DNA of 64,000 nucleotides from an uncultured virus (IMG/VR IMGVR_UViG_3300009694_000018) (Duplodnaviria; Heunggongvirae; Uroviricota; Caudoviricetes): IMG/VR virus record IMGVR_UViG_3300009694_000018; one strand, written 5' to 3'. The notes below the pieces were generated by a model. The model made no database searches and was not told the origin of the DNA. It was given only the letters and a program-made list of their open reading frames with translations. Shown here piece after piece: positions 2,763 through 37,089 of this stretch (positions are counted from its first letter, which is position 1; each line of letters opens with the position of its first letter). The position numbers were made by a program, and so were the translations under genes.

Positions 2763-3863
2763 ATGGCAACTCCACCGTCACCGATAACTAATAATTCAAT
2801 GCAGGTAAATGGAAAAGTTACAGACTCTGGAAGTCTGGATATAACAAGTATTGGATTTGTTTACAGTTCTTCTGTAACATACCCAACAAAAAATCAATCC
2901 GATTGTAAATATTTAGATGTCAATTTAAGTAAAATGGATGATCTTGGAAATTTTCAAGATATCGTAACTGGGTTAACATCCAATACAATTTATTATTTTA
3001 GATCATATGCGGAAAACCCTATAGGTATATCATATTCGATAGAATCCGTATCAGGAACTACAAACGGAATAACTAATATACCACAAATAACATTCAGTTT
3101 ATGTAGTTATATTACACCATATTATTATCCACAGCAAAATTTTGAAATTGGTGTAAATTATTACATAGTGGTTAGTGGACAAACAATAAAAAATGATGAA
3201 ATTAATTTCGCTTATGGCGATTTAAGAGTATATTACAATAATTATTCTAGTATTATATCTGTTTGGACCGGATATTCTAATGATTATATGATAGGTAGTT
3301 ATAACTATTTACCAGTATCAGAAAACACAGATAACCACATATTAACTTTTAAAACAACTCAGTGGTGTGGAATAGATGATTATTACAGTGTAACTGGTTC
3401 TTCTATAGCAAACGCGTGTTATCCTTTCTTGTGGGTAATGAAGTCAGAATCAAAAAACGCGGATTATTTCAAAGCTAAAAATGGAAATTATTTTTATAAA
3501 GATGCTTCATTGAATAACGGCAAATTAATTGAAAAAATAACCGGAGAAACTACCATGGTTTTTAGTTTAAAATTAGTAGAACCTAATAATTATTTAATCT
3601 TTGGTTATTTAGATTCATATAATAAAGATTATAATGTATCTTTTGGAATAGATGGAATAAATTGGTCCGGTATTACAAACAATAATTCTAATATTCGATT
3701 AGTTGAAACAGGTTTATATGAAAATGAAGTGATTAATTTTATGAGTCCTTGGCAAATATCAGGGCAACATAGTGTTTCTTATAGAGTAATAACATACAAA
3801 TATGAAGATTTAGGTTTTCAAGAATTTTATATTAAATTTGTTTCTTATTATGATGAAATTTAA
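2763..3863 (+). CDS. FN3-like domain protein, putatively structural
   Basis: GFVYS...LTSNTIYYFRSYAEN resembles the FN3-like units of the upstream gene. Confidence 0.45.
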   Translation: MATPPSPITNNSMQVNGKVTDSGSLDITSIGFVYSSSVTYPTKNQSDCKYLDVNLSKMDDLGNFQDIVTGLTSNTIYYFRSYAENPIGISYSIESVSGTTNGITNIPQITFSLCSYITPYYYPQQNFEIGVNYYIVVSGQTIKNDEINFAYGDLRVYYNNYSSIISVWTGYSNDYMIGSYNYLPVSENTDNHILTFKTTQWCGIDDYYSVTGSSIANACYPFLWVMKSESKNADYFKAKNGNYFYKDASLNNGKLIEKITGETTMVFSLKLVEPNNYLIFGYLDSYNKDYNVSFGIDGINWSGITNNNSNIRLVETGLYENEVINFMSPWQISGQHSVSYRVITYKYEDLGFQEFYIKFVSYYDEI

Positions 3864-3912: not shown

Positions 3913-4908
3913 ATGAAAAACTTTAATGATTTTTTAAACGAAGATGCTGATAACAAAAAAGAAACAAGTAAATTATTTTTTAGCTTAAACTTTTTTAAAA
4001 TATTAAATAAAATAAGTACTAATAAGGTAGCGAAAGAATTACTTGCAAACGACCGAAAACCTATTTCTAATATATCTTGGTTAGATATTGATGAGGAAGA
4101 CAGCAAAAATATTTCATTCTTAACTACTGACAGAGCAAAAAGAATTGAAAATGTTGATTTAATTAATTATGATCCAAATAGTCCTTTATGGACAAGTACA
4201 TTAAGACAAAGTTCATTAATAGGAAAAATAATCAATAAATTATTTCCTGATAAATTTACAAACATGGACATAGATGAATTCTATAATAGATATCGGCCAG
4301 AAATAGATGCGAAAAAATCAAAAGGTAACAATTTTGAATTAGTTAAAGGTGAAGATATTAGAAAATGGTATAATGAAAAAATGTACAACGGACGTATGGG
4401 ATCTTGTATGAGATATGATAAATGTAAACCATTTTTTAATATTTATTGCGAAAATCCAGAAAAATGCGGTCTTTTAATTTATTTAGATGAAACTGGTGAA
4501 AAAGCTTATGGAAGAGCTTTGGTATGGTCTGGATTATTTAAACCGAGTGGAGATACAAAAGAAGATAAAGAACCATATACATTAATGGATAGAGTATATG
4601 TAGTAGAAGGTAAATCACAATTAGTAGCAATGTTTAAAAAATATGCAATAGATAATGGATGGATTTATAAAGAAGGAGATGCTTTTATGATGGACGGTCA
4701 ACGAAAAACAACATCAGTTACGATACGTTTGAAACCAATAGATTATGGTAAATATCCATACATGGATACAATGCAATATTTTACACCGTCCACTGGCAGA
4801 GCGTCTTCAACAGCTGGTAATCCAGCCAGGGATCCGAGTAATCCTAGTAAAGTTTTTCATAGATATAATTTGAGAAGTCAAGATGGTGGTTATGCTAAAA
4901 TTGATTAA
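3913..4908 (+). CDS. Hypothetical protein, paralog 1 of a 4-gene tandem family (SCM...GRALVW...DRxY...YPYxDT)
   Basis: Motifs shared with the next three ORFs; N-terminus MKNFNDFLNE. Confidence 0.8.
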   Translation: MKNFNDFLNEDADNKKETSKLFFSLNFFKILNKISTNKVAKELLANDRKPISNISWLDIDEEDSKNISFLTTDRAKRIENVDLINYDPNSPLWTSTLRQSSLIGKIINKLFPDKFTNMDIDEFYNRYRPEIDAKKSKGNNFELVKGEDIRKWYNEKMYNGRMGSCMRYDKCKPFFNIYCENPEKCGLLIYLDETGEKAYGRALVWSGLFKPSGDTKEDKEPYTLMDRVYVVEGKSQLVAMFKKYAIDNGWIYKEGDAFMMDGQRKTTSVTIRLKPIDYGKYPYMDTMQYFTPSTGRASSTAGNPARDPSNPSKVFHRYNLRSQDGGYAKID

Positions 4909-29082: not shown

Positions 29083-30483
29083 TTAATTATTTTTGATTTT
29101 TTTAATAATATAATTAACTATTATTTCTGGAATATTGACACCCGATATAACAGAAAAGGTAGAGAAATGTGAAGCCGAATTAACCTCCATTATGTAATAT
29201 TCCTTTGTATTTTTATTCTGTATTATGTCAAATCCTAAAATATCACTGTCTAAATGTTTAGATACATCTTCACACATTTTAATGATATTAGATGGTAATT
29301 TTCCTTTTATAGCCTTTGCCCCTCTAGCCACATTAGATCTAAATTCTTTTTCGTCTATTCTTTTTTTCTTTATTATCAATTCAACTTTATTTTTTATTGT
29401 TATAACCCTATAATCCCCATCGTTTGGTATGAATTTTTGTATCAACATCAAATTGGAAGAATATCTATGTGAAAAAGTTTTGATTAAGTTTTTCAAATCT
29501 TTGATCAAGAAAACGCCAGTACCTCTATTTGCTTTAACATCTTTGACAATAACTGGGAATCCAAAGTCATTTTCAACTATACTGATTATTTTATTTGTTA
29601 ATTTAGTAGTCATTATTGATGGTATATATGGATATCCTAAATTTTCTAAAAGATCAAATTCATAAGCCTTATTATCATATTCACTATAAGTACCATATTT
29701 TAAATAAGGAATATCATTTCTATTTAGATAATTAACAATCATTTTACACAAAGATGTGAAATTTGATACGTGTCCAAAAAATACAAAATTGTAATCTTTC
29801 AAACAAATACCATGTGCATAATAATCTTTTTTTATTTTATAAATATCATCATAATTAACAAAATTAACAAAAACATCATCTTTCATTTTTTCATAAAATA
29901 AAACTGGAAATAATCCGGACATATTTTCAAATCCTCTAAAAAAATTATAGACATCTTTTTCACCATGTGTATCTATAGCCAAATCGAATTGAATAAAAAG
30001 TACTTTATATTTACTATCCGGTTTTTCTGTTTTTTTAAATCTACACATTTTAAATGGAATTTTATATCCAATATCAATATGTGGATCACCGACTTCATAT
30101 ATATTGCCTTTACTATTAGTGACTGCTTTGACGTAATGATAGGGTTTGGATTTTAAAAACTTTTTTTGATTTTTATTCAAATCGTTAAAATCAAAAATTT
30201 CTACCCAATCACCAATTTCTATAGGTGTTGGCTGTCTTACTTCTTCAACCTTTGGTTCTTTTTTTATTTTTTTAATTAAATCATCATGAATTTTTTTTAC
30301 TTTCAAATCCCTTTTCTTTTCATCTTCTGTCTTAAAGCTATCATCATCAATATCCCATAATCTCAATTGGTTATATTGATCAATGTTCAATTTATCTTCT
30401 TCTGGTTGTAGTTGAACTTCTTCATCACCAGTAAAAGGTTGTACATTTTCCTTAAAAAAATTATTATATCTTAATATTTTCAT
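29083..30483 (-). CDS. RimK/LysX-family ATP-grasp ligase with N-terminal extension
   Basis: FPVIVK...RGTGVFL, IQKFI...DYRV, FRSNVARG, GFDII, MEVNS. Confidence 0.85.
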   Translation of the reverse strand: MKILRYNNFFKENVQPFTGDEEVQLQPEEDKLNIDQYNQLRLWDIDDDSFKTEDEKKRDLKVKKIHDDLIKKIKKEPKVEEVRQPTPIEIGDWVEIFDFNDLNKNQKKFLKSKPYHYVKAVTNSKGNIYEVGDPHIDIGYKIPFKMCRFKKTEKPDSKYKVLFIQFDLAIDTHGEKDVYNFFRGFENMSGLFPVLFYEKMKDDVFVNFVNYDDIYKIKKDYYAHGICLKDYNFVFFGHVSNFTSLCKMIVNYLNRNDIPYLKYGTYSEYDNKAYEFDLLENLGYPYIPSIMTTKLTNKIISIVENDFGFPVIVKDVKANRGTGVFLIKDLKNLIKTFSHRYSSNLMLIQKFIPNDGDYRVITIKNKVELIIKKKRIDEKEFRSNVARGAKAIKGKLPSNIIKMCEDVSKHLDSDILGFDIIQNKNTKEYYIMEVNSASHFSTFSVISGVNIPEIIVNYIIKKIKNN

Positions 30484-30587
30484 ATTATTATATATAAAAA
30501 ATTATTATTAAAAATTAAAAAAAAAAATAAATCTTTTTAATTTTTAATTTTCATTATATATTAAAATAATCCAATGAAAATTTATTT

Positions 30588-31115
30588 TTAACAGTGTTCT
30601 TTTAAAAATTTAATGATTTTTTCTTTTATGCCCAATTGTTTAATTCCCTCATTAGCGCGTTTTATGTGAATAAAATTCGCTTCAAACCAAGGATTCAAAT
30701 CGTAATCATCAATGACTATGAATTTCTGTACATTGTTATCACACACATATTTTATGATTTCAGACGCACGACAAGCTTCCAGTTCTTGAACTTTCATAAA
30801 TTCAATTCCCCAAAGATTCGGAGTTATATCTGTTATAGTGCATTTAACATTATTCCACTCAAATATTCTATTCATTACTTCCAATGAATATTTCTTACCC
30901 CAATCACTTGATAATACAACGATTGGTTTTTTTGATAGCATTGCTTCATCAAGAATTTGATTAAAAACCTTTACACATTTTTCATCAAACCTGTAGCAAT
31001 CATACATGGGATGCCATTTTTTCCTATTAGTATAATACTGATTGGTGGTCACTAAAACACCGTCTAGATCTAAAAAAATATAGACTTGTTGATTATTATG
31101 GAATTCTTTATTCAT
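30588..31115 (-). CDS. HAD-superfamily phosphatase of the RNA-repair (Swiss-army-knife) type
   Basis: IFLDLDGVL, VVLSSDW, FIVIDD. Confidence 0.75.
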   Translation of the reverse strand: MNKEFHNNQQVYIFLDLDGVLVTTNQYYTNRKKWHPMYDCYRFDEKCVKVFNQILDEAMLSKKPIVVLSSDWGKKYSLEVMNRIFEWNNVKCTITDITPNLWGIEFMKVQELEACRASEIIKYVCDNNVQKFIVIDDYDLNPWFEANFIHIKRANEGIKQLGIKEKIIKFLKEHC

Positions 31116-31218
31116 TTATACAAAGATACATAAAAAAATTTTAAATAAAAAACAATTAAATCAAAATATACAAGTATTCAAAAAAAAATGTATTCAAGAT
31201 AAGGATTAAAAGGACTAA

Positions 31219-32130
31219 TTAAATTAGTCCTTTTAATTTCATATTTCTATATAATCTTGTAAAACCAATACCAGCACCATATCTATTTATCATTGGTAAT
31301 GATAAATAAGATTCTAATTCATTGATAACTCTTTCTTTACCAAATTCGTTATATAATAACTTGGCATACATTCCATCTGATATACTATGGAAACTATTTC
31401 TCATTTGTTCTACATCAACAGATCTTTCAGCCGATCCAAATGTTTCTTGACCACAAATAATAAAATCTGTTTTATTAAATAATCTTTCACCTTTTTTATT
31501 TAATCCATCTTGTTTCATATTCCAAAATGGATGAGTCCTTTCTGGAAAATACGTTATTCCAACAACGTCACCATATTCTTTCCATATTAATATTTCGTGA
31601 TCGGATTCTAAATTATCAACACCATAATGTTCACACAATTCATCATATGTGAATATTGGAATATCTTCAGTTTTTTTCACAAAACCAAGATGAACACTCA
31701 ATTCACTTAATGTTTTTATAAGATCTTGAAAGTTTCCTTTATGTTCAAACTCCCACATTGGAAATATTTTATCATGTCTACCAGGTATAGGATTAGGTTC
31801 ATCTCTATAAGATGTTGTCATACAATATATACCATCTGCTTCCTCTGGCATAGTTAGTAATATCATTTCCAAATTCATTTGATTAGTTTGACTCAAAGGC
31901 CATGTATTTCCATCGAAAGTAAAAGATCTTAAAGTTCTCGGATCCTCACAGGCAGCCATAATAGATCTTATTGGTTGAGGATAAACTTCTTTATAATTTT
32001 TTTGCATAAAAAAAGTCCTCATTTTATTGACTAATTCATCAAAGTCTTGAGGACCAATAACATCTTGGTTAAAAATTTGTTTCTTCATAAGCATTTTTTT
32101 TTTGGGCGGAAAAATCCACCAAAAAAACAT
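31219..32130 (-). CDS. Stand-alone class IIb aminoacyl-tRNA synthetase catalytic domain (Asn/Asp/Lys-like), no anticodon-binding domain; real start probably ~32094-32088
   Basis: Motif 2 SYRDEP...RH..IFPMWEFE; GQETFGSAER; motif 3 GAGIGFTRL. Confidence 0.75.
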   Translation of the reverse strand: MFFWWIFPPKKKMLMKKQIFNQDVIGPQDFDELVNKMRTFFMQKNYKEVYPQPIRSIMAACEDPRTLRSFTFDGNTWPLSQTNQMNLEMILLTMPEEADGIYCMTTSYRDEPNPIPGRHDKIFPMWEFEHKGNFQDLIKTLSELSVHLGFVKKTEDIPIFTYDELCEHYGVDNLESDHEILIWKEYGDVVGITYFPERTHPFWNMKQDGLNKKGERLFNKTDFIICGQETFGSAERSVDVEQMRNSFHSISDGMYAKLLYNEFGKERVINELESYLSLPMINRYGAGIGFTRLYRNMKLKGLI

Positions 32131-32156: not shown

Positions 32157-33926
32157 TCAATTTTTTTCTGTGAGGTTTGTTTTTTTATTATTTTTCCAAA
32201 TAAATTTTAAATGACCAGAATCATATATTCTATAAATATTTTTTTCTAACATTATTTCATGTTCTGTTTTTGATGGGTCGGCACCATCTTTAATTAATTT
32301 ATCTTTTCTGAATACAAATCTATGTTTTCTTTTTCCGTTTATTATATAATAATAATTAGGTTCTGTTTTTCTTATAAAATCAAATCCTATTTTTTTATAA
32401 AGATTGCCATTAGACCAACTGCGATCAGCGTAACTTATAACAACATTGGGATTATATTTATCGACGAAATATTTAAATAATCGACTAGCTCCGCCGATAA
32501 CATTAGTATTTAATATATTGCAAAATCTTAACATTTCATAAGTTCCGACTACTGATTTCTGACCCATTAATTTTCTTTTATCACCAAATGTCATTAAAGA
32601 AACCAATTTATTTTCATAAAAAAGTCCTATTTTAATTTTTGATCCAACGTGTCCTTGAATATGATTTTTATCCAAGAAATCTTTTATCATTTTAGTGTCA
32701 TTAAATTCTTTAATTTCAGTTTTTCTAGCCATTATCTTATTAGATTTGCCTAGCAAATTTAGTATTCTGGATTTAACTATATCTTGTTTATATAACCAAT
32801 CATCTTCATATATTTGAATTAATTTTATTTCTTTTGATTCCGATATATTTGTTTTATTTATATGATAATTTTTGTCTTTATAAATCTCCGAATGCCAATA
32901 AAGACCATTGAATTCAAATCCAATTTTTAATTCTGGTAAATAAATATCTATCTCATATGGATTTATAATAATATTATTGTTTAATTCTATTATACCATCA
33001 TAATTTTCTTTTATAAAATCTCTAATTTGAATTTCCAAACCGGACTCTTGTTTATCTATTGGATTGCAAATAGTACAAATTTCAGTTTTGCAATTTTCTC
33101 TATTTCTGTTATAAAATAAATTAAAAGTTATATTGAAAGTATGCCCTTTATCACAATTAATTTGAAATTCTTTTTTAACAAAATCTGCATTAATAAAATT
33201 TAAATTTTTATATTTATTTTTAATTTCATTAAACCATTTTATTTTGTTTTCATTTATAAATTTATCTCTAATTATACCATTTTTAAAAATATTATCAACA
33301 CCATATTTATCTATTAATATTTCTTTAATTTTATCTATTATTTCAGGAGATGAAAAAACATTTTCATATCCAAAATTTTTTAAATATGTATTTTTTTTAT
33401 GTTCTTTAATTTTTTCATTTTTATTATGACTTTCAATCCCATATTTTAATAAATTCGTATTTTTTATTTTTTCTTTTATTTCATCATTTTGAAAAACGTT
33501 GTCAACTCCATATTTTTCATTTATTGTATTTTTTACTTTTTCTTTTATATTTTTATCTTTCATTGGATTATCAACACCATATTTATCTATAAGAGATTTT
33601 TTTATTTTTTCTTTTAGTTCCATTTTTTTTAATGGATTTGTTACTCCGTATCTTTTTATATTTGTTTCTTTATATTTTATCCATTTACAATCTTTACAGT
33701 AATATTTACCATCATCCTTTATATAATTATTATACTTGACATAAGACACTTCCTTTTCTTGTCCACAATTATCACAACATACATTAATCTTTAAATTACT
33801 TCCTTTATGTAAAATATTTATATCAACGTTTATTACATCATTTATTTTAATATCATTAAAGTAATTAATATAATAACCCATATTTCTCGAAGTTATAGTA
33901 ACATTTGAATTTTTAGTTAATATCAT
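32157..33926 (-). CDS. Hef-like homing endonuclease paralog
   Basis: CDNCG, KYGVDN repeats, EIDIYLPELKIGFEFNGLYWH, GNAT-like C-terminal domain. Confidence 0.75.
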   Translation of the reverse strand: MILTKNSNVTITSRNMGYYINYFNDIKINDVINVDINILHKGSNLKINVCCDNCGQEKEVSYVKYNNYIKDDGKYYCKDCKWIKYKETNIKRYGVTNPLKKMELKEKIKKSLIDKYGVDNPMKDKNIKEKVKNTINEKYGVDNVFQNDEIKEKIKNTNLLKYGIESHNKNEKIKEHKKNTYLKNFGYENVFSSPEIIDKIKEILIDKYGVDNIFKNGIIRDKFINENKIKWFNEIKNKYKNLNFINADFVKKEFQINCDKGHTFNITFNLFYNRNRENCKTEICTICNPIDKQESGLEIQIRDFIKENYDGIIELNNNIIINPYEIDIYLPELKIGFEFNGLYWHSEIYKDKNYHINKTNISESKEIKLIQIYEDDWLYKQDIVKSRILNLLGKSNKIMARKTEIKEFNDTKMIKDFLDKNHIQGHVGSKIKIGLFYENKLVSLMTFGDKRKLMGQKSVVGTYEMLRFCNILNTNVIGGASRLFKYFVDKYNPNVVISYADRSWSNGNLYKKIGFDFIRKTEPNYYYIINGKRKHRFVFRKDKLIKDGADPSKTEHEIMLEKNIYRIYDSGHLKFIWKNNKKTNLTEKN

Positions 33927-33940
33927 TTAAAAGAATATTT

Positions 33941-35458
33941 TTAATCAATATGTTCTAATTCCAACAAAAGCTCATCTTCAGCACTTCTAAGCTCTCTTTT
34001 ATATGACTCTAATTCATCGTGTTCTTTCATCATAAATCCCTTATATTTCTTTCTGTCAGCAAAAATATCTGTCATCACTTGATTAACTACACCGACCTCA
34101 TTTTTAAAAACAGAACCATTTAATAATTTAATATCATTAGAATCTAAATCAACCCTATGTCCATTAAAGATTGCAAAATCTTTACCCGGAGACAAAATAC
34201 CTTTATAAGAATCTGCCGAAATATTAAACATCCTCATACACGTTGGATAAAGGGACGAGAAATCATAGCAAGCAGTCCATAATGCCATTCCTTTTATAGG
34301 TTCTTTGACCCATCCTCCTTTAACGGTTTTCTCTGATTCCATTATTGTATTATTATCTGAGAAATCTCTATCCAATTTACATAGAATAACATTTCTTTCT
34401 TTTTTTAATTTTCTTCTCAATATGCCTTCTGTAACTGGAAGAGTTGAATAAGCGTCTAGGATTTTAATTCGAGATAAGGTGGCAATTCCATAAAGAATAT
34501 CAATCCATTTTGTTTTTTCGTGTATTTTCTGAACTAGAATTGAATCTACTGCATTATAAAATATAAACTTTTTGTAATCGTTTACGACTAGTGTTTTAAG
34601 AGATCCTTCATAATTGACTTTTTTAATACCAAGAATTCCATCGGAAACGAAGTCTAGTGAATTTGATTCTTTAACTTTAATTGTAGAGTTCCATTTTTCA
34701 TAGAGCTCCATATAATCAATAATTAATCTATGAGCTGGTTGTTCACAATATGATTGTTTTTGTCTACCATTTTTATTATCTCTTTTAAATGGTTGTCTTA
34801 ATATTTTAGTATATGACGCTGATGTTGGATCTACTCCGATTTTTCTAGCTCTATTAACGAGAAATACCCAATCATATTCAGTAAAATTCCAACCAGTTAT
34901 AACTGGCATTTTTGGAACATACTTTTCAAAAAAGTTCAATAGCATCTCGTATTCATTTCGATATTTAATGAATTTAAAATCATAATTCGCATTAAATTTT
35001 ACGAAATAATTATTTATATCTTCTCTAATAGATGCTTCTTGTTCCTTTGATAAATCATTTAATCCCATAACAAGAGCTTTATTTCTAACCACAATAGATA
35101 TAGATTGTATAGCACTTTCTGCTAGTTCTGGTTGAGGTCTTTTATCTAAAATTTCATTTTCAATATCAACAAAAAAAATCTCGGGCTCTACGTATTTAAA
35201 AAGAACATCTTGTTCTTCTTGTGGTAAATTATCAATATAATCATAAACTGAATATCGATCTGGCATTCGAGTATATGTTAACTTGCAAGCCATACCATCC
35301 CAAGTTGTATATTTACCACTTTTATCTCTATCATCATCCGAGCAAACTACATATTTTTGTGGATTTGGCCATCTATAATGTTTCATTTTAATTTGACCAT
35401 TATCACCAATATAGGATACTTTTAAAATTTGCTGAGAATATTCGTAATCAACTATCAT
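33941..35458 (-). CDS. Family B DNA polymerase, N-terminal subunit (3'-5' exonuclease and motif A only)
   Basis: VDIE (ExoI), TGWNFTEYD (ExoII), YNAVD (ExoIII), GGWVKEP, YDFSSLYP (motif A); ends after RKKYK, lacking motifs B and C. Confidence 0.85.
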   Translation of the reverse strand: MIVDYEYSQQILKVSYIGDNGQIKMKHYRWPNPQKYVVCSDDDRDKSGKYTTWDGMACKLTYTRMPDRYSVYDYIDNLPQEEQDVLFKYVEPEIFFVDIENEILDKRPQPELAESAIQSISIVVRNKALVMGLNDLSKEQEASIREDINNYFVKFNANYDFKFIKYRNEYEMLLNFFEKYVPKMPVITGWNFTEYDWVFLVNRARKIGVDPTSASYTKILRQPFKRDNKNGRQKQSYCEQPAHRLIIDYMELYEKWNSTIKVKESNSLDFVSDGILGIKKVNYEGSLKTLVVNDYKKFIFYNAVDSILVQKIHEKTKWIDILYGIATLSRIKILDAYSTLPVTEGILRRKLKKERNVILCKLDRDFSDNNTIMESEKTVKGGWVKEPIKGMALWTACYDFSSLYPTCMRMFNISADSYKGILSPGKDFAIFNGHRVDLDSNDIKLLNGSVFKNEVGVVNQVMTDIFADRKKYKGFMMKEHDELESYKRELRSAEDELLLELEHID

Positions 35459-35515
35459 AGTCGAATATCATTTGTTTTTATTTATTTAATATATACGAAT
35501 AAAAAATAAAAGTTT

Positions 35516-35700
35516 ATGAACAAAAAAACAGAAGATTTTATAAAAAAAAGCTAATATTGTGCACAATTATATTTATGATTATAGTTTAGTTAATTATGAA
35601 ATCTCCAAAAAAAAAAATAAAAATAATTTGTCCTGAGCATGGAATATTTGAGCAATTACCACCTAGTCATGTTATTAAAAAACAAAAATATTTGAAATTA
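35516..35700 (+). pseudogene. Frameshifted remnant of a homing-endonuclease N-terminal repeat
   Basis: MNKKTEDFIKK / ANIVHNYIYDYSLVNY / KIKIICPEHGIFEQLP lie in shifting frames across A-runs. Confidence 0.6.
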
Positions 35701-35706
35701 GATTAT

Positions 35707-35775
35707 AAAAAAACTCGGAAAGTAGCGATTTTTCCGAGTTTAGATAGCCGAAGCTATAACAGTCCTAAACTGTAT
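35707..35775 (-). ncRNA. Three-hairpin structured element ending in a terminator; partly antisense to 23S rRNA helix 69
   Basis: Minus strand: ACAGT-TTAGG-ACTGT, ATAGC-TTCG-GCTAT, AAACTCGGAAA-AATCGCTAC-TTTCCGAGTTT-TTTT. Confidence 0.55.
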
Positions 35776-35833
35776 ATTTTTAACGAACAATCCAAGATTC
35801 TAATCCTGTATCATTCTCCATATTTTAGATAAC

Positions 35834-36214
35834 CTAAGAAGATGGAAAATATTTTTTCATCATGTCAATAGCTTTATAGTCATTCAAACTTGGTTTACAA
35901 TTGTGTTTATTATATAGATGTCCTATCTTATAATTCATATTATCACATACTTCTTCGCCACATTCAAGACATTTAACTTTTTTAAAAGGGCGTGGAAGAA
36001 TGTTTTCATTGATATGTTGATCATTCCACCATTGTTCAAAAATTAAAAATCCCTTTTCACCAGCTTCAAACGCCAATTTGCATAATTCTTTTACTTCTGA
36101 TAAAAGAAATCTATTTTCTTTTTTTAAAGGTTCCCATTCCCCTTTAATCGGTATAAGATCACTATCATCGACCGCTTCTTTGAAATAAATTTTTCTACTT
36201 TTTAAATTTTTCAT
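35834..36214 (-). CDS. Hypothetical protein with a C2H2-like zinc finger
   Basis: CLECG...KIGHLYNKH. Confidence 0.55.
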   Translation of the reverse strand: MKNLKSRKIYFKEAVDDSDLIPIKGEWEPLKKENRFLLSEVKELCKLAFEAGEKGFLIFEQWWNDQHINENILPRPFKKVKCLECGEEVCDNMNYKIGHLYNKHNCKPSLNDYKAIDMMKKYFPSS

Positions 36215-37089
36215 ATTATTATATTTTTTATTTTTGTTTTTAATTTTAAATAATTTTTATATTCATCAGTAAATCTATTATTATTACAATATAAATATTG
36301 TAAATTCTTTAAATGTTCAATTCCATCTAAATTAGTTAATTGATTACGTGAACAATCTAATAATTCTAAATTCGTTAAATGTTCAATGCCTTCTAAACTA
36401 GTTAATGAATTATTCGAACAATGTAAATATCTTAAATTAGTTAAATGTTCAATTCCATCTAAATTAGTTAATTGATTATTATGACAATATAATTCTCTTA
36501 AATTAGTTAAATGTTCAATTCCTTCCAAACTAGTTAATTGATTAGAATGACAATATAATATCTCTAAATTCGTTAAATGTTCAATTCCTTCTAAATTAGT
36601 TAATTGATTAGAATGACAATATAATTCTCTTAAATTCGTTAAATGTTCAATTCCTTCTAAATTAGTTAATTGATTACGTGAACAATCTAATAATTCTAAA
36701 TTAGTTAAATGTTCAATGCCTTCTAAATTAGTTAATGAATTATAAGAACAATTTAATGTTTCTAAATTAGTTAAATGTTCAATGCCTTCTAAACTAGTTA
36801 ATGAATTATAATAACAATATAAAGACATTATTTGATCTAATGGTTTATTTTGTTCTTTAGCTAACTGTATTATCGGTGTATCATTATCATCGTTCCAATC
36901 TTCCTCGCCGTATGGATCAATATCCGATCTATTTAATTGTTCAAAGTTTTTTCCTTTCTTACCAATATCTTCGCCTCTCCTAGCTCTTTTAACTATATCG
37001 GATTTTTTTTCTTTTGTTAATCCTTCAGATGGTTTATTCTTTTCATTTAAAGTAAAATCATCAAAATTCATTAGATTATTCATATACAT
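36211..37089 (-). CDS. LRR protein (8 x 22-aa) with chimeric N-terminus and DPYGEEDW motif
   Basis: Same LRR consensus and caps as 1..676 and 62844..63533. Confidence 0.9.
   Translation of the reverse strand: MYMNNLMNFDDFTLNEKNKPSEGLTKEKKSDIVKRARRGEDIGKKGKNFEQLNRSDIDPYGEEDWNDDNDTPIIQLAKEQNKPLDQIMSLYCYYNSLTSLEGIEHLTNLETLNCSYNSLTNLEGIEHLTNLELLDCSRNQLTNLEGIEHLTNLRELYCHSNQLTNLEGIEHLTNLEILYCHSNQLTSLEGIEHLTNLRELYCHNNQLTNLDGIEHLTNLRYLHCSNNSLTSLEGIEHLTNLELLDCSRNQLTNLDGIEHLKNLQYLYCNNNRFTDEYKNYLKLKTKIKNIII

Follow-up and report, generated by a model that had tools for sequence, protein, structure and literature searches.

What is a stretch of sequence resembling one of the most conserved parts of ribosomal RNA doing between two genes of a giant phage? 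The question is raised by an uncultured virus of the Caudoviricetes (IMG/VR record IMGVR_UViG_3300009694_000018), of which 64,000 nucleotides, hereafter called the window, were analysed. The sequence at issue resembles the helix 69 region of 23S rRNA, where the recognition site of I-CeuI is located. Helix 69 forms the inter-subunit bridge B2a and is among the most conserved rRNA stretches. An initial annotation of the window proposed that the minus strand encodes a phage RNA or 3′ UTR that base-pairs with the 50S subunit to recruit, hold or inhibit ribosomes or, alternatively, that the site is a decoy or a target for an rRNA-site nuclease. Here, we describe the element, its relatives in other phages and its genomic surroundings, and we weigh these readings against each other and against further ones.

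A three-hairpin element in the spacer before a DNA polymerase gene

The element forms the right part of a 375-nt spacer that extends from an ORF at 35834-36214 (minus strand) to a DNA polymerase gene at 33941-35458 (minus strand). Folding and family evidence delimit an RNA of ~71 nt on the minus strand, running from 35777 to 35707 (5′-AUAUACAGUUUAGGACUGUUAUAGCUUCGGCUAUCUAAACUCGGAAAAAUCGCUACUUUCCGAGUUUUUUU-3′), which starts with AUAUACAG and continues to the UUAGGA motif. The fold that we computed reproduces in full the architecture given in the initial annotation, that is, three minus-strand hairpins, one of them with a C-UUCG-G loop, and a terminal U-tract. HP1 (35759-35773, minus strand) has an ACAG/CUGU stem, which is extended in the minimum-energy fold, and a UUUAGGA loop that contains the invariant UUAGGA. 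HP2 (35744-35757, minus strand) is a C(UUCG)G tetraloop hairpin, AUAGC-UUCG-GCUAU. HP3 (35711-35741, minus strand) consists of an 11-bp terminator stem with a 9-nt loop, AAUCGCUAC, at 35722-35730, which displays UCGCUAC as had been claimed and precedes the U7 tract (35707-35713, minus strand).

An 11-bp stem followed by U7 has the features of an intrinsic terminator on the minus strand, with the U7 tract as its tail. A simple terminator scan returned no site at the element because the 9-nt loop exceeds the limit of that scan, which considers loops of 3-8 nt; this is no evidence against a terminator. The folding energy of the 146-nt region is −37.4 kcal/mol (z = −3.85), a value equalled by none of 200 shuffled sequences. 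No tRNA was detected in the window by ARAGORN or the Rfam tRNA model, and where relatives of the element lie in tRNA arrays they occupy a gap between called tRNAs. An RNase P external guide was also considered and rejected, as there is no RCCA 3′ end. One more hairpin, CAGGAU-UAGA-AUCUUG, is predicted at 35785-35816 (minus strand), between the stop codon of the upstream ORF and the element; the gap between stop codon and element is 66 nt in the window, against a family median of 15.

Complementarity to 23S rRNA and its chance level

On the plus strand, positions 35747-35768 (GCCGAAGCTATAACAGTCCTAA) match E. coli 23S rRNA 1907-1928 at 19 of 22 positions, in agreement with the initial annotation; the reference sequence is that of locus L122. 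The heptamer GTAGCGA, described as lying apart from this match, is present at 35722-35728. Read on the minus strand, the two matches become two segments able to pair with rRNA. Segment 1 (UUAGGACUGUUAUAGCUUCGGC, 35747-35768) is the complement of 23S 1907-1928, with fifteen contiguous positions (1914-1928, one G-U pair), then two mismatches, then CGGC; the fifteen positions are those of UUAGGACUGUUAUAG, whose pairing with 23S 1914-1928 had been noted. Segment 2 (UCGCUACUUU, 35719-35728), located in and just after the HP3 loop, is the complement of 23S 1927-1936 with one G-U pair.

How far does this exceed chance? When the 22-mers of the window were compared without gaps to both strands of the E. 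coli rrn operon, 35747-35768 was the sole site with at least 19 matches, and 12 other 22-mers reached 18/22. In the window alone, the match to 23S is barely above chance, and its significance comes from its conservation across phages. Indeed, the family 22-mer matches 23S at 20 of 22 positions, a score that was reached by none of 2000 shuffles. Run searches that tolerate G-U pairs are noisy, with U-tracts giving chance runs of 13-16 elsewhere in 23S, and the evidence for complementarity presented here is limited to Watson-Crick runs and Hamming matches.

The window holds another exact complement of 23S, 13 nt long (TTTCGCTACCTTA, complementary to 1927-1939), at 4023-4035 on the minus strand, antisense inside the ORF 3913-4908. 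This site, which is also a weak match of our covariance model R1 (E = 0.02), is probably due to chance.

An RNA family found almost exclusively in phages

By blastn, the same element was found in LR756501, a 735-kb uncultured phage, in the same synteny: a gene, the element, an endonuclease gene on the opposite strand and the DNA polymerase B gene. Compared with the window, this copy has compensatory changes in the stems of HP1 and HP3 and unaltered loops. Pattern scans revealed many further members. At least 18 were present among at least 119 loci matching an exact 17-mer pattern, the rest being mostly one unrelated coding sequence, whereas all 33 viral loci returned by a second pattern were members. 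Leaving HP2 free gave 90 viral loci with 58 distinct sequences, and leaving HP1 free gave 51 metagenome loci with 48 distinct sequences. Altogether, the union of the pattern scans comprises 92 distinct member sequences. The covariance model R1 identified one strong copy in each of the five phage records that were searched with it.

In prokaryote genomes the element is rare: a subfamily pattern matched seven loci in 185,579 prokaryote species genomes, and the sole member among them (L180) lies on a 9.2-kb MAG contig. With three member types as blastn queries against 50,697 phage records, no cultured phage was found to carry the element; the matches were to the uncultured 735-kb LR756501 and LR756503, plus one T-run match in a Bacillus phage. 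The cultured Flavobacterium phage immuto, a relative by its DNA polymerase A (36.6% identity), has a plain terminator at the syntenic place.

A search for Rfam matches had been recommended as a check. In Rfam 15, the sole match to the region 34500-37000 of the window was RalA, whose score of 15 bits (E = 3.7) compares with a threshold of 170. Searches of five other member loci recovered the flanking tRNAs and no match at E <= 1 that covered the element. No known RNA family with another function turned up in these searches. In the portions of the literature that were accessible to our searches, the motif appears in connection with I-CeuI sites, primers and probes, and we found there no phage RNA complementary to this region of 23S. 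From these sequence comparisons, the element is a member of a large uncatalogued RNA family that occurs almost only in phages.

Conserved positions and their proposed 23S target

As judged from the member sequences, the family is defined not by one fold but by its sequence, namely by two blocks complementary to a contiguous stretch of 23S. Block 1, UUAGGACCGUUAUAG, pairs with 23S 1914-1928, and its complementarity often extends toward 1907 (up to 1908 in perfect runs). Block 2, UCGCUAYY in the terminator loop, is the complement of 23S 1929-1936. The two blocks abut at 1928/1929 without overlap and jointly cover at least 23 contiguous rRNA bases. Since the search patterns forced the 15-mer or HP2, plus UCGCUA, only unforced positions count as evidence of conservation, and it should be kept in mind that members are mutually related.

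The stems vary around these blocks. All 92 members have an HP3 stem of 7-15 bp, built from 64 different 5′ strands around a constant UCGCUA loop core; with shuffled flanks, the mean stem is 4.7 bp and 10% reach 7. The HP1 stem is ACGG/CCGU in 68 of the 92 members, ACAG/CUGU in three and ACGA/UCGU in three. In the 18 members without an HP1 partner, CCGU either pairs with AACGG farther downstream or adopts another arrangement, and block UUAGGACCGUUAUAG is unchanged. HP2 comes with UACG or UGCG loops, or as a 6-bp stem, AUAGUC-UACG-GACUAU. A family that kept its hairpins and lost the complementarity had been named as the pattern that would speak against pairing with rRNA; we observed the opposite, the complementarity being kept even where the hairpins differ.

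Over all members, the U before AGGA is present in 91/92. The unforced positions extend the complement. UUAGGA is present in 47 of the 48 sequences from the scan in which HP1 was free. CCGU changes only by C to U (6/92, which keeps a G-U pair with the rRNA) or by an inserted C (12/92). After UUAUAG, the members continue with UUACGG, UUAC, UUA-A-CGG, CUACGGC, UUUCGGC or CUUCGGC, the exact 23S complement being UUACGGCC. The perfect Watson-Crick runs measure 15-21 nt and cover 23S 1908-1930. In block 2, UCGCU is followed by A-Y-Y in 81/92 members, and either pyrimidine, C or U, can form a pair with G1930 and with G1929; no base is conserved opposite A1937, where U occurs in 52/92. As for other rRNA targets, no Watson-Crick run of 9 or more with the 16S 530 loop was found in 69 members, including 70 nt upstream of each.

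The proposed target itself is highly constant. The 31-mer corresponding to E. coli 23S 1907-1937 was located at 42 places, always without a mismatch, in 35 of the 81 genomes examined from the phylum that includes a Bacteroidales MAG; no match to the 31-mer was obtained in the rest, which in draft genomes does not imply its absence.

Predicted exposure and pairing energy

Over 69 members, the predicted unpaired probability averages 0.78 at UUAGGA and 0.87 at UCGCUA. The corresponding averages are 0.45 for the complete RNA and 0.21 for the remainder of block 1, whose bases lie within HP1 and HP2. Hence, as in antisense RNAs that present loops to a target in trans, target-complementary bases are predicted to be single-stranded, and complementarity is kept while other positions vary. 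The predicted co-fold of the window RNA with 23S 1896-1950 reaches −45.9 kcal/mol, versus −20.7 and −12.1 kcal/mol for the two RNAs alone (sum −32.8). In this in silico complex, HP1 and HP2 open and pair with 23S 1903-1929.

The RNA strand and its genome context

Several features bear on the strand from which the RNA is made. A U-rich tail follows HP3 on the strand antisense to 23S in 57/69 members, and an A-run that could serve the other strand in 0/69. A co-oriented ORF stops less than 120 nt upstream in 65 of the 69, at a median of 15 nt before UUAGGA. The HP2 loops read UUCG, UACG or UGCG on the antisense strand only, so that UNCG tetraloops fit this strand alone. In a 324-kb phage contig (L131), the element (2958-3026) lacks a U-tail and occupies exactly the 69-70 nt that separate tRNA-Glu from tRNA-Val, on the strand of the tRNAs, and in another contig (L140) it follows tRNA-Val on the same strand (~2989-3060). 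In a third contig, co-oriented tRNAs lie more than 1 kb from the element. The tRNAs of L238 and L247 are on the strand opposite to the element, 750-930 nt away, which counts against the strand assignment. Altogether, because of the U-tails, the orientation of the ORFs, the tetraloops and the tRNA arrays, the comparison of members points to the strand antisense to 23S, the minus strand in the window, as the RNA strand. The copy of L131, which has no U-tail, would be released by tRNA processing. We also observed that the tRNA arrays of L131 and L140 are interspersed with GIY-YIG/NUMOD-type endonuclease genes.

A contig from an RNA (metatranscriptome) library covers 35632-35780 at a depth of 8.5, versus 2 for the contig of the upstream ORF, although DNA was possibly present in the library. 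The RNA runs are four sets of assembled contigs that carry no information on strand, ends or expression level, and in which uncovered parts are uninformative; this contig is only a hint of a transcript.

The element of the window lies in the 3′ UTR of the upstream co-oriented ORF (35834-36214, minus strand), which encodes 126 amino acids with no Pfam family. A relative of this ORF is also found upstream of the element in L168. Across the family the upstream genes are diverse and include those for ribonucleotide reductase, thioredoxin, M15 peptidase and many unknown proteins. A co-oriented upstream ORF that shares its terminator with the element, the arrangement of 3′ UTR-derived sRNAs, is seen in 65/69 members. 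A subfamily with UUAGGACCGUUAUAGUUAACGG (L193, L216 and relatives) follows the gene for the large subunit of ribonucleotide reductase, another member is downstream of a thioredoxin gene, and several members of the subfamily of the window precede a DNA polymerase A gene. These neighbours hint at a link to nucleotide and DNA metabolism modules.

The endonuclease remnant and the other neighbouring genes

The initial annotation mentioned an endonuclease remnant next to the element, and this could be substantiated. A frameshifted stretch of ~60 codons, left over from the N-terminal part of a free-standing gene resembling those of homing endonucleases, lies at 35518-35700 on the plus strand (tblastn to the intact ORF of LR756501, E = 8e-9): its pieces 35547-35597 and 35629-35688 (plus strand) match residues 13-29 (82%) and 40-59 (60%). 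The intact form in LR756501 is an endonuclease-like ORF of 234 amino acids (L001, 2340-3044). Neither the remnant nor the intact ORF matched a Pfam family at E <= 0.01. In the window, where it is convergent with the element, and in LR756501, the endonuclease gene has the element on one side and the DNA polymerase B gene on the other. DNA polymerase B genes are a usual target of free-standing endonucleases. The endonuclease gene is best read as an independent insertion, an incidental neighbour that is not part of the RNA. It was also asked whether the element could be a permuted intron-exon arrangement or a splint, which is ruled out by the coding genes that abut it.

The gene at 33941-35458 (minus strand) encodes the N-terminal part of a family B DNA polymerase (Pfam DNA_pol_B_exo1 and DNA_pol_B). 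Its product ends after 505 amino acids and contains the exonuclease domain together with the first part of the polymerase domain. The ORF that comes next, of 589 amino acids, has DUF7487 repeats and a Mom-like domain (both genes lie within 32157-35458, minus strand). The remainder of the polymerase was not found in the next three genes. LR756501 carries the same N-terminal polymerase gene, of 504 amino acids. Directly downstream of these, the region 29083-32130 (minus strand) has three genes with a relation to translation or RNA, which encode a class II aminoacyl-tRNA-synthetase-like protein (303 aa), a 'Swiss Army Knife' RNA-repair HAD domain and a RimK-like ATP-grasp ligase; the phage of the window seems to invest in manipulating translation. 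On the other side, at 36211-37089 (minus strand), a gene encodes a protein of 292 amino acids that consists almost entirely of leucine-rich repeats (LRR_4, E = 7.6e-65), an unusual product for a phage.

Discussion

In this study, we report a phage RNA element that the initial annotation had read as a minus-strand RNA or 3′ UTR with loops complementary to helix 69 and beyond. This part of the proposal is borne out by the homologs, by the strand assignment and by the Rfam searches, which returned no matching family. The best-supported mechanism is that a ~70-nt phage RNA acts by pairing with 23S 1907-1936, to which, given the conserved complementarity, we assign a probability of roughly 0.5. With somewhat less assurance, we suggest that phages of many lineages possess a dedicated RNA that invades helix 69 and the strand following it in free or nascent 50S subunits, and that they control in this way the supply or the turnover of these subunits.

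The following course of events can be proposed. The RNA would be the 3′ end of the mRNA of the upstream gene, ended by its own intrinsic terminator, or in some giant phages a unit of a tRNA array. The transcript would probably be trimmed to a stable RNA of ~70 nt that starts near AUAUACAG (35777). The exposed UUAGGA and UCGCUA would pair first, with the single-stranded junction after helix 69 and with the strand that follows, and pairing could then spread into helix 69 while HP1 and HP2 open. Helix 69 is folded and modified in the mature 50S, and the region is buried in the 70S and docks late in assembly. Because of this, plausible targets would be free or still-assembling 50S subunits, in which the region is not yet locked. 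Possible outcomes would be a helix 69 that is blocked for subunit joining, an arrested maturation, or cleavage of the long hybrid or of the rRNA thus marked. Decay of 23S during starvation is reported to start when RNase E cuts near 1942, which lies a few bases past block 2; where sRNAs guide RNase E, the cuts are located a few bases downstream of the duplex.

This mechanism has its difficulties. Because the order of the blocks is the reverse of that in a plain antisense copy, the RNA would have to loop back along the hybrid in order to bind with both blocks at once, and eight pairs formed within a 9-nt loop would be sterically tight. According to the predicted fold, most of block 1 would be locked in HP1 and HP2. 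Ribosomes are moreover very abundant, far outnumbering any sRNA, and the phage needs them, so that a simple inhibitor is not obviously useful.

Four other readings have to be weighed against pairing with 23S rRNA. That the whole element is an ordinary intrinsic terminator with accessory hairpins, resembling rRNA by accident, could be argued from the window, whose 19/22 match is just one above the score of 12 other 22-mers, and from the plain terminator of the related phage immuto; we give it practically no credence, as 92 distinct members keep both blocks, with 64 different terminator stems around the same loop, and the 20/22 of the family 22-mer was not reached by shuffling, while unforced positions extend the complement. 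A plus strand that mimics the I-CeuI-site region, acting as decoy or target of an rRNA-site nuclease that is tied to the adjacent endonuclease gene, would account both for the 19-20/22 identity to 23S on that strand and for the endonuclease-like gene or remnant that abuts the element in the window and in LR756501. This alternative of the initial annotation finds no support and is very improbable: the RNA belongs to the other strand according to the terminator tails, the ORF orientation and the tRNA arrays, the rRNA-like pieces stand in permuted order with ~20 nt between them, and among the 19 loci with ORFs listed only the window and LR756501 (L001) have an endonuclease ORF abutting the element. 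The contiguous I-CeuI recognition sequence (23S 1915-1937) is not formed in the window, where its halves are reversed and separated and the copy has three mismatches. The window and L001 both carry changes that disrupt the pairing of helix 69, while HP1 co-varies, and a fold of the plus strand that would mimic helix 69 was ruled out since the variants break it.

The two remaining readings accept the RNA and its strand. Its loops could serve another partner, be it a phage or host protein or another RNA, and the likeness to 23S could be a relic of captured antisense rDNA. HP2 does resemble the complement of the 5′ strand and loop of helix 69, made into a UNCG hairpin by one or two changes, as capture would have it, and pairing with 23S is deduced from sequence, most of block 1 being buried in stems. 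We nonetheless find this account unlikely. A relic would drift, yet subfamilies with different folds retain the complement, which in the longest case is perfect over 21 nt, and the only variation seen is of a kind that preserves pairing with G; furthermore, the blocks abut exactly at 1928/1929, and the second is not where a simple copy would place it. It is also conceivable that through the same complementarity a nuclease or another enzyme is guided to the rrl genes or to pre-rRNA during its synthesis, which would serve host shut-off or the salvage of nucleotides. The target is present in every rrl copy and identical across phyla, in some members the element comes after a ribonucleotide reductase or thioredoxin gene or ahead of a DNA polymerase gene, and a quasi-continuous hybrid of 23 bp would offer sufficient length for an RNase specific for double strands. 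The element is not regularly accompanied by any one protein gene, however, the upstream genes being diverse, and no known guide-RNA scaffold was matched in Rfam; we regard such a guide as quite unlikely.

To our knowledge, the targets of antisense RNAs described in bacteria and phages are mRNAs, replication primers or toxin transcripts, and phages that attack translation do so with proteins or tRNAs. In the literature accessible to our searches, we found no precedent for the proposed class of target. If the proposal is true, a natural trans-acting RNA directed at rRNA itself would for the first time be known from a bacterial virus; it would define a new route of host takeover, through helix 69 and the strand after it, and would provide a natural lead for rRNA-directed antisense inhibitors. 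Even with another target, the family is large, phage-specific and absent from Rfam.

Comparison with known systems helps to situate the element. RNAs that present antisense loops include CopA/CopT of plasmid R1, RNA I/RNA II of ColE1 and OxyS-fhlA with its two kissing loops. Like CopA, RNA I and OxyS, the phage element is a short structured RNA that carries the complement of its target in loops or single strands, with two contact sites, variable stems and fixed loops. It differs from them by its proposed target, an rRNA instead of an mRNA or a replication primer, by being encoded by a phage far from the target gene, and by being known from sequence. As in 3′ UTR-derived sRNAs of the CpxQ and SdhX type, it directly follows a co-oriented ORF and ends at the terminator of the latter; unlike these, it is a module found behind unrelated genes and inside tRNA arrays, and therefore behaves as an independent cassette. 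The copies beside or between phage tRNA genes in L140 and L131 recall RNAs C and D of phage T4, stable RNAs of unknown function encoded in a tRNA cluster, the likeness noted here being one of gene position, although most members of our family lie outside tRNA clusters.

With respect to the ribosome, the plus strand is close to 23S rDNA at helix 69, the I-CeuI recognition site (19-20/22 plus 7-9 further identical bases). Unlike the rDNA, it has its parts in permuted order, offers no contiguous site and does not keep the helix-69 fold, and the functional strand would be its complement. Ribosome-associated non-coding RNAs (rancRNAs) and the calicivirus TURBS, which pairs with 18S rRNA, act through contact with the ribosome or with rRNA, as is proposed for the phage element. 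However, rancRNAs are cellular fragments without long complementarity to rRNA. TURBS acts in cis on the eukaryotic small subunit, in re-initiation, whereas the phage element is followed by a terminator, has its proposed target in the large subunit and, in some copies, is not close to any ORF; what TURBS shares with the phage element is a conserved complementarity to rRNA in a virus.
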